A DNA stretch of 64,000 nucleotides. It comes from a virus (Duplodnaviria > Heunggongvirae > Uroviricota > Caudoviricetes). Every line of letters begins with the position of its first letter. Position 1 is the stretch's first letter. Location of the stretch: positions 32,001 to 96,000 of IMG/VR virus record IMGVR_UViG_2713896909_000009; one strand, given 5' to 3'. This document shows, piece by piece, positions 35,992 through 36,818 of the stretch. Made by a program: the position numbers and the translations under genes. The notes below the pieces were generated by a model. The model was given only the letters and a program-made list of their open reading frames with translations, ran no database searches and was not told where the DNA came from.

Positions 35992-36243
35992 TCAGCGTTT
36001 GACTCTATTTCTATAGAAATCACCTGGAAGGGTGAATATCCACATCAGAAGAAACGTTGCAGCAAACATGATCCCTAATGGCCAGAATATGCCAAAAAAA
36101 ATCATTATCCAAAAACGATCCCACCAGGCCATTTCTGCATTAGCTCGCAAAATATATCGACTTAATGCGTATATCAGCCCACCGATTAGTATATAGATGA
36201 GAATAGATACCAGGATAGTCATAGCGTTAGTCTCAATGAGCAT
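35992..36243 (-). CDS. Small integral membrane protein
   Basis: ORF track 83 aa; 2-3 hydrophobic segments, Trp-rich. Confidence 0.5.
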   Translation of the reverse strand: MLIETNAMTILVSILIYILIGGLIYALSRYILRANAEMAWWDRFWIMIFFGIFWPLGIMFAATFLLMWIFTLPGDFYRNRVKR

Positions 36244-36302
36244 AACGAATATCGCCAGAGCAATGTATAAATCCCTCTGCGCCGGGCAGAGGGACTAAAT
36301 AG

Positions 36303-36818
36303 TTAAAATCGGTAACCGACACCAAGCATCCAAATGCTATTGCTTAGATCACCTGGTTTAGAACGTTCATACGAGAGATCAACTGCAAACTGCGGAGCTG
36401 GGTTAAATTGAAGCCCAAGTCCATAAGCAAAATCGGTTCCAAAGCCAGCATATGACTGTCCATTCAGTTTTGCTGTTGCATCCGCATGGCTTAAACCCAC
36501 CAAGCCGTATGCACTCATTAATTCATTGAATCTGTATGACGGACCAAAAGTAAATGAGGCATACTCAACCTTGGCTTTGGCGGCATTCCATAGGTTTGTG
36601 TTTGACTTTTCGTAAGTGACCGAAGCTAATCCACCCCACGTAGAATCCATTTCGTAGCGATATTTAATATTCACGCCTTTTGGATCTTTTATATCTCCGC
36701 CTTTAACCGTTGCGCTTCCTTGGGCAAAGTCTAAGGAGAGTGTGTGCTGATATGCGGAGGCAGTCCCAGCAACCCCCAAGGCACATGCCAGAAGGGCCGT
36801 TAAAACTACTTTTTTCAT
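36303..36818 (-). CDS. Ail/Lom/PagC/OmpX-family outer membrane beta-barrel protein
   Basis: ORF track 171 aa; signal peptide MKKVVLTALLACALGVAGTASA; C-terminal MLGVGYRF; alternating aromatic strands. Confidence 0.8.
   Translation of the reverse strand: MKKVVLTALLACALGVAGTASAYQHTLSLDFAQGSATVKGGDIKDPKGVNIKYRYEMDSTWGGLASVTYEKSNTNLWNAAKAKVEYASFTFGPSYRFNELMSAYGLVGLSHADATAKLNGQSYAGFGTDFAYGLGLQFNPAPQFAVDLSYERSKPGDLSNSIWMLGVGYRF

Follow-up and report, generated by a model that had tools for sequence, protein, structure and literature searches.

The 171-aa open reading frame next to the lytic replicon of the viral DNA studied here is an accessory (cargo) gene that a P1-like phage-plasmid carries in intact form, and its product belongs to the Ail/OmpX/Lom/Rck/PagC family of outer-membrane beta-barrels. 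The window, i.e. the whole stretch of 64,000 nucleotides that was analysed, is from a P1-like phage-plasmid; from 35700 to 37000 it is 99.3% identical to Salmonella phage SJ46, a P1-like element of the genus Punavirus. The gene order of P1 is kept, with tail sheath, tail tube, pmgG and bplB on the plus strand and ant, kilA and repL on the minus strand. On the structural side the barrel gene and its 83-aa neighbour are bordered by pmgG, bplB and a 210-aa open reading frame, all on the plus strand, and on the other side by repL and kilA on the minus strand. The original prediction had described open reading frames of 171 and 83 aa on the minus strand beside the lytic replicon, between structural genes and repL; the list of open reading frames and the gene order bear this out. 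The features of the region are compiled in Table 1.

Table 1 Features of the barrel gene and its surroundings, with positions in the window.
Feature	Position	Strand	Basis
Truncated hok/mok/sok-type locus	35824..35945	-	81-83% identity to annotated mok/hok loci
CDS, 83-aa Trp-rich membrane protein with two hydrophobic helices	35992..36243	-	ORF, PHROG, hydropathy, AF2
Degenerate remnant of P1 C1 operator Op55/Orlf, ATTGCTCTGGCGATATT, 11/17 consensus positions	36248..36264	-	Alignment
GC-rich stem-loop of 11 bp, 7 nt past the stop of the lom-like gene, followed by a poor U-tract (AUUUAUACAUU)	36270..36296	-	Folding
CDS, 171-aa precursor of an Ail/OmpX/Lom/Rck/PagC outer-membrane beta-barrel	36303..36818	-	ORF, Pfam, PDB, AF2, Foldseek
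Codons 1-22, predicted Sec signal peptide MKKVVLTALLACALGVAGTASA, cleaved before YQH	36753..36818	-	Read from the sequence
AT-rich spacer of 95 nt from the stop of repL to the start of the lom-like gene	36819..36913	-	Alignment, operator and terminator scans
repL, lytic replication initiator	36914..37756	-	ORF, annotation, alignment to P1 and RCS47
Sigma-70-like promoter match TCTACA-18-TATATT (9/12) inside the divergent 3' end of repL	36935..36964	-	Promoter scan
kilA (KilA-N and ANT/KilAC domains), first gene of the C1-controlled kilA-repL operon	37786..38586	-	Pfam, annotations
C1 operator TTTGCTCTAATAAATTT, 1 mismatch, upstream of kilA	38656..38672	-	Operator search and P1 annotation

The assignment to the OmpX/Ail/Lom/PagC type, as first proposed, was confirmed by sequence profiles and by structure prediction. 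The 171-aa protein matched the Pfam families Ail_Lom (PF06316; 1.3e-22, 81 bits against a cut-off of 23) and OMP_b-brl (2.7e-24, 86.7 bits against a cut-off of 28.7) as well as PHROG 108, "Lom outer membrane protein" (2.2e-47). Among proteins of the PDB, Yersinia Ail (2e-29), OmpX (5e-21) and lambda Lom (1.5e-13) were matched. These profile and sequence scores are far beyond chance. An AlphaFold2 model built with 32 homologues (mean pLDDT 86.7) has an N-terminal helix and eight long strands, which are predicted to run antiparallel and to close into a barrel. By Foldseek, the model superimposes on Y. pestis Ail with TM scores of 0.87-0.90 (0.90 for 3qra) at 41% identity, and on E. coli OmpX (1qj9) with a TM score of 0.90 at 35% identity. 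In public records the gene already carries the RefSeq label "Lom outer membrane protein" or "Ail/Lom family outer membrane beta-barrel protein".

A signal peptide and a terminal aromatic residue had been claimed as well, and both can be recognized. The N terminus reads MKK (two Lys), followed by a hydrophobic core with a mean Kyte-Doolittle value of 2.4 and by ASA then Y. This stretch is helical with low confidence in the AlphaFold2 model, and the mature Ail and OmpX chains in the PDB align with the precursor from residue 26 on. The mature protein is predicted to have about 149 aa and to end in GVGYRF; in an alignment of 32 sequences, F at the last position and Y at -2 do not vary. Thus, the precursor has a putative cleavable signal peptide at one end and, at the other, the predicted C-terminal aromatic insertion signal (Y-x-F).

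Within the family, the protein represents a distinct, long-diverged lineage that is, by sequence comparison, orthologous to no named member. Orthology was judged by the equivalog cut-offs of NCBIfam, which are 176 bits for OmpX (NF006917) and 258 bits for Rck (NF011777). With 117.2 and 79.7 bits, respectively, the barrel is an orthologue of neither, although the OmpX model is its best NCBIfam match and covers it over the full length (6.8e-34). Orthology to lambda Lom can be rejected too, since the identity to lambdoid Lom proteins is 31-33%, length and loops differ and the PDB match is weaker than that of Ail and OmpX; what the two proteins share in PHROG is the broad family 108. The designation "Lom/Ail-type" therefore holds for the membership in the family and not for an orthology to lambda Lom, as the closest proteins are Ail (41%) and OmpX (35%). 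Beyond its own cluster of >90% identity, the nearest kin are Ail/Lom proteins of Arsenophonus and Photorhabdus (40-46%) and OmpX of Cronobacter (39%). In searches for the origin of the cassette, no relative between 90% and 46% identity was found in an index of 5.8 billion proteins, in PLSDB, in a phage collection or in species-representative genomes.

Ail of Y. pestis and Y. enterocolitica (3QRA, 3QRC, 2N2L) is the top match in the PDB both by sequence and by structure; like the protein described here it has eight strands, a similar size and a C-terminal GxGYRF, but Ail is chromosomally encoded, whereas the gene studied here is borne on a plasmid/phage. In addition, extracellular loop 2 falls 4 residues short of that of Ail, and there is no conservation between the two proteins in the sequences of the loops. 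OmpX of E. coli and other Enterobacterales (1QJ8/1QJ9) has the same precursor length of 171 aa and short loops, but the identity is just 35-39% and here the gene resides on a mobile element. Indeed, the extracellular loops of the phage-plasmid protein are among the shortest in the family alignment and resemble those of OmpX. Lom of lambda and of lambdoid/Stx prophages (9WSO chain C) is a prophage-borne barrel of the same Pfam family, but it is longer (about 199-206 aa, i.e. about 199 codons in tblastn and 206 aa in the PDB chain) with longer loops, and it lies close to tail-fibre genes of siphoviruses, whereas the gene described here comes after the lytic replicon in a P1-like plasmid of the myovirus type. 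Rck of the Salmonella virulence plasmid and the Lom-like proteins of Fels-1 and Gifsy-2, all borne on mobile elements, are about 36% identical to the barrel; Rck, with 185 aa, has longer loops.

P1-like phage-plasmids have eight highly variable regions, of which rlfA-rlfB-pmgF is variable region 5 (PMC9603915). The barrel gene sits in this region, in the slot between repL and bplB. In P1 the slot holds the C1 operator Op55/Orlf after repL, followed by rlfA (DUF3800), rlfB and a short pmgF; in RCS47 and its relatives it holds a TnpB element of the IS605 family, and in genomes of the MH422554 type a small open reading frame and an intact hok/mok locus, and nothing else. Here, the barrel gene and a gene for a small membrane protein take this place, and all that is left of Op55 is a remnant behind the barrel gene. 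Carriers are rare. At >90% protein identity the gene is present in 36 PLSDB plasmids, as compared to 515 with repL (7%), and in 9 of 5426 complete E. coli genomes. Escherichia albertii of wild birds accounts for many of the carriers; among the others are Salmonella and E. coli of poultry, pig and human origin. The G+C content of the segment is 41-44%, that of the flanks 47-52%. The gene thus has the accessory distribution and the atypical composition of a "moron". It is also kept in a rearranged IncF plasmid that retains just fragments of the P1-like region, and its reading frame is intact in every carrier examined. The few alleles examined differ by conservative substitutions, and synonymous changes occur at about the same frequency as non-synonymous ones (9 versus 5 and 11 versus 13 codons).

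The borders of the segment were traced by alignment to genomes that lack the barrel gene. The last ~20 codons of repL (LDMVLSTRKEKEFYIPTGFRG) diverge from those of P1 and RCS47 (LNAVLAKNKDNEQWGIPAGFRG), from which we infer that the left edge probably lies inside repL. At the downstream end of the barrel gene, the stem-loop's 3' arm and the next bases (GCAGAGGGATTTATACATTGCTCTGG) align with the end of repL and Op55 of the genomes without lom (TTCAGAGGGTGATAGATTGCTCTAATCTGG), and the sequence ATTGCTCTGGCGATATT aligns with ATTGCTCTAAT, which follows repL in P1, RCS47 and MH422554. Hence, Op55 is not wholly lost; a degenerate remnant of it is now found just upstream of the small open reading frame and no longer after repL. 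The remnant varies between plasmids with ~99% identity elsewhere, and this variation suggests relaxed constraint on it. Further downstream, the hok/mok/sok locus has retained the leader and the start of mok and, as seen in an alignment to the intact hok locus of MH422554, has no hok reading frame; it is backbone debris near, and outside of, the lom gene. An Rfam scan of 35000-39500 (E <= 1) gave only sub-threshold chance matches (SAM-III-like, rdlD-like), and the hok/sok model did not match the remnant.

The operator ahead of kilA is the counterpart of Op53/OrepL of P1. Going upstream from the barrel gene, it is the first one met: a search that allowed up to 3 mismatches detected no C1 operator between 22599 and 38656, and so none in the spacer behind repL. 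For the minus strand, terminator scans and folding predicted no intrinsic terminator in the interval from repL to the barrel gene. In an alignment of five lom-bearing elements this spacer has a polymorphic 10-nt indel. The promoter listed in Table 1 is the sole match upstream of the gene and is weak; the number of matches in the region does not exceed that in shuffled sequence. Since there is neither a terminator nor a C1 operator and the promoter is weak, transcription may equally well run on from the C1-repressed kilA-repL operon. The signals fit two scenarios, a weak constitutive promoter that is freed from C1 or read-through from kilA-repL after induction. The barrel and 83-aa genes had been assigned to a minus-strand unit of their own. 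The strand is correct, but the separateness does not follow, as both genes have the same orientation as repL, follow it directly and are not set apart from it by a terminator; a separate transcription unit for the barrel gene is unproven. On the other hand, the C1 operator Op55, which follows repL in P1 and RCS47, does not precede the barrel gene here, and expression while the plasmid is repressed would fit with this.

The stem-loop behind the barrel gene is stable (-21.4 kcal/mol, z = -3.2) and conserved in all five of the lom-bearing elements aligned, with a change in the loop in SJ46 only. In E. albertii CP034163 a single U-to-C exchange in the 5' arm keeps the pairing. A consensus terminator scan did not report the structure, and we regard it as a terminator-like or mRNA-stabilising hairpin.

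What is the barrel good for? Our best, though tentative, explanation is that it changes the surface of the carrier cell in the plasmid-prophage state, with a benefit at the host interface like that of Ail or Rck. The precursor would be exported by the Sec system and folded into the outer membrane by BAM, with its four short loops displayed at the surface. Transcription would probably start from the gene's own weak promoter, which lacks a C1 operator, and be complemented by read-through from kilA-repL after induction. A resident plasmid prophage would thus alter the surface of its carrier, i.e. bring about lysogenic conversion. By analogy to Ail and Rck, the likeliest benefit would be protection or adhesion at the interface with the animal host, via complement regulators or matrix. 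This proposal draws on the fact that the closest characterized homologues are Ail and Rck and that the carriers are animal-associated Enterobacteriaceae. It is weakened by the loops, which are short and not conserved with Ail; the ligand-binding functions of Ail and Rck map to extracellular loops. OmpX of E. coli itself has, to our knowledge, no clear virulence phenotype. Moreover, as no terminator follows repL, the barrel gene may mainly be a distal member of the C1-repressed lytic operon, which argues against expression in the lysogen. Among the few alleles variation is low and without a bias towards the surface loops, and there is therefore no sign of arms-race selection. We found no paper that discusses the gene in P1-like elements, its expression or a phenotype, and the paper on SJ46 is silent on it. 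Altogether, lysogenic conversion, as put forward in the original prediction, is a reasonable analogy.

A second explanation, less probable but to be taken seriously as a rival, is that the barrel serves in phage-adsorption block or superinfection exclusion: it would crowd or mask a surface receptor, which for P1-type phages is the LPS core, so that fewer incoming or progeny phages adsorb. Its level would then be low in the plasmid state and high after derepression, as expected for a distal gene of kilA-repL, and the position of the gene directly downstream of repL, on the same strand and with no terminator or operator in between, speaks for this. A precedent comes from functional metagenomics, where heterologous eight-stranded OmpA/OmpX-like barrels blocked adsorption of T7, with the LPS-core mutant waaC as adsorption-defective control (bioRxiv 10.1101/2025.02.28.640651). 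In the same study over-expressed lambda Lom gave strong protection against lambda-vir and OmpX gave none, and the authors suggested that the role of Lom is to curb non-productive adsorption in late infection (bioRxiv 10.1101/2025.02.28.640651). In addition, the superimmunity genes simABC are found in a different variable region of P1-like elements (PMC9603915). However, the effect of Lom was seen upon over-expression only and concerned lambda-vir, not a P1-type phage. The barrel is also only distantly related to lambdoid Lom (31-33%) and has the size of OmpX, the very protein without a defence phenotype, and it has no match in PADLOC-DB at E <= 0.1, nor do the 83-aa protein and the 210-aa neighbour.

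It is unlikely that the gene is a mere hitch-hiker, i.e. an OmpX-like paralogue in a recombination hot spot that has little or no specific phenotype, is kept by linkage and perhaps contributes to general envelope robustness. The full-length match to the OmpX model, the identical precursor length, the short loops and the low prevalence (7% of the repL plasmids, 9 of 5426 E. coli genomes) would agree with this, and so would the low allelic diversity, which is consistent with a recent single acquisition. But all carriers have an unbroken reading frame, the proportion of synonymous changes is fairly high, and the gene was retained in the rearranged IncF plasmid that has only P1-like fragments. Furthermore, a lineage that is at most 46% identical to anything else and still is a fully canonical barrel implies sustained selection somewhere.

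A still less probable view is that of a P1-type self-exclusion device that is switched on together with lytic replication and masks the LPS-core receptor, with the 83-aa protein as a second, early-expressed envelope function. The barrel, encoded distally on the C1-controlled kilA-repL transcript, would coat the outer membrane, and progeny as well as competing LPS-dependent phages would not adsorb to cells that are already committed. This would be a Lom-like adsorption block, here in a myovirus phage-plasmid.

The 83-aa product was rightly predicted to be a Trp-rich membrane protein. It has 5 Trp and two hydrophobic segments and is modelled by AlphaFold2 as a helical hairpin (pLDDT 71); translation might also begin at Met8. 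The protein matches PHROG 3772 (2e-40), to which PHROG assigns no function, and its homologues are confined to P1-like elements. Only eight proteins were retrieved when 1.84 billion representatives were searched exhaustively with a profile, and we take these to be the family itself and its fragments. A match to the NCBIfam family "SA1362" was dismissed as noise from the hydrophobic segments (20 bits, cut-off 42). Two variants of the protein exist, the SJ46 type and an 81-aa type (a cluster of 396 member sequences), which are ~44% identical overall; their C-terminal halves (IFFG..WPLGIMFAATFLLMWIFTLPGDFYR) are nearly identical and their N-terminal halves have diverged. The frame is preserved through an in-frame 15-nt indel between the variants, and both retain the two hydrophobic segments. 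Together with the hairpin model, this argues for a real coding gene.

The small gene had been grouped with lom in one unit, and this did not stand. In MH422554, which lacks lom, the 81-aa gene directly follows repL and an Op55-like site, and the C-terminal segment of the gene (about 35950-36103 of the window) is present with 90-95% identity in ~465 plasmids without the barrel gene. Judged by this distribution, the 83-aa gene is a backbone gene of many P1-like plasmids, independent of the barrel gene, and the latter has therefore been inserted between repL and the pre-existing small gene. The notion that barrel and small inner-membrane protein were acquired and work together as one two-component envelope system is therefore highly improbable and was rejected: the two genes are adjacent and co-oriented, and a distinct N-terminal variant of the small protein was recovered from lom-bearing elements only, but that variant co-occurs with lom because of linkage in one recombined segment, the small gene is common without the barrel (the lom-less genome with the small gene after repL, the ~465 plasmids with its C-terminal segment and the 81-aa cluster, n = 396), and a strong hairpin and the operator remnant lie between the two genes.

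The finding is sound but ordinary. The barrel gene is already annotated with its family in public records; it is a divergent branch of a well-known family in a known variable region, a correctly annotated cargo gene and not a discovery. Its value is that of a cheap, well-defined candidate for a simple functional experiment. E. coli, Salmonella and E. albertii commonly harbour P1-like phage-plasmids, which have been studied as carriers of resistance genes. The family of the barrel includes the proven virulence factors Ail, Rck and PagC, and Lom, which was recently reported to block phage infection. A cargo gene for a surface protein would mean that P1-like phage-plasmids also alter the encounters of their carriers with the animal host or with phages.

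In RCS47-type plasmids, P1-like relatives that lack lom, an IS605-family TnpB element (TnpB proteins are a family of RNA-guided endonucleases) is located at the same point as the barrel gene in the window. The element has repL/Op55 on one side and, on the other, what is left of the small ORF (the 83-aa membrane protein gene of the window): the insertion truncates this gene, and its C-terminal half remains. In the window, Op55/Orlf, a C1 operator of P1, is present as a degenerate copy, which is probably non-functional since its sequence varies between nearly identical plasmids. 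At the other end of the barrel gene, lom-bearing plasmids are polymorphic for a 10-nt indel, which is one unit of the imperfect direct repeat CGCGGATGAT/CGCGAATGAT; the repL stop is kept with and without it.

Features in and around the lom slot
Feature	Location	Strand	Remarks
Truncated hok/mok/sok-type toxin-antitoxin locus	window 35824-35945	minus	leader and mok start codon 81-83% identical to annotated mok/hok loci
10-nt indel ATGATCGCGA	window 36908-36917; compared loci L020, L021		at repL stop codon
Degenerate copy of P1 C1 operator Op55/Orlf	window 36248-36264	minus	downstream of barrel gene, upstream of small ORF
IS605-family TnpB element	L002 (RCS47) 4452-5621; L004 (pKBN10P04869B) 2699-3868		
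P1-like block in chromosome record	L023 (E. coli ST2747, NZ_CP007393.1) 2220401-2233066		
210-aa ORF	window 35180-35812	+	PHROG 7522

The barrel gene is also found in other replicons. Its most divergent allele (92% protein identity) resides on the E. coli plasmid NZ_OZ039654.1 (L020), a 168 kb conjugative IncF plasmid, where only fragments of the P1-like region are left beside it and IS elements flank it. The chromosome record of E. coli ST2747 contains the same P1-like block as the window, in which tail genes are accompanied by the barrel gene, repL, kilA, ant and icd; a lambdoid gpJ pseudogene adjoins the block. Its presence there reflects either integration or recombination of a P1-like element or an error of assembly.

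Beyond the small ORF, the hok/mok/sok-type remnant, for which Rfam gave no match, lacks the hok reading frame, and in its place lies the 3' end of the 210-aa ORF, which runs towards it from the opposite direction, whereas MH422554, another relative without lom, encodes an intact 51-aa Hok at the corresponding position. Two Rfam matches elsewhere in the window, SAM-III-like (35138-35218, plus strand; 22.7 bits, threshold 45) and rdlD-like (39040-39101, plus strand; 21.1 bits, threshold 50), scored below threshold and were judged to be due to chance. The 210-aa ORF had no match in Pfam, NCBIfam or PADLOC. P1 has the short pmgF at this place, and the counterpart of the ORF is 198 aa long in RCS47 but absent from MH422554. 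The slot, variable region 5 of P1-like phage-plasmids between repL and bplB, is thus variable on this side as well.
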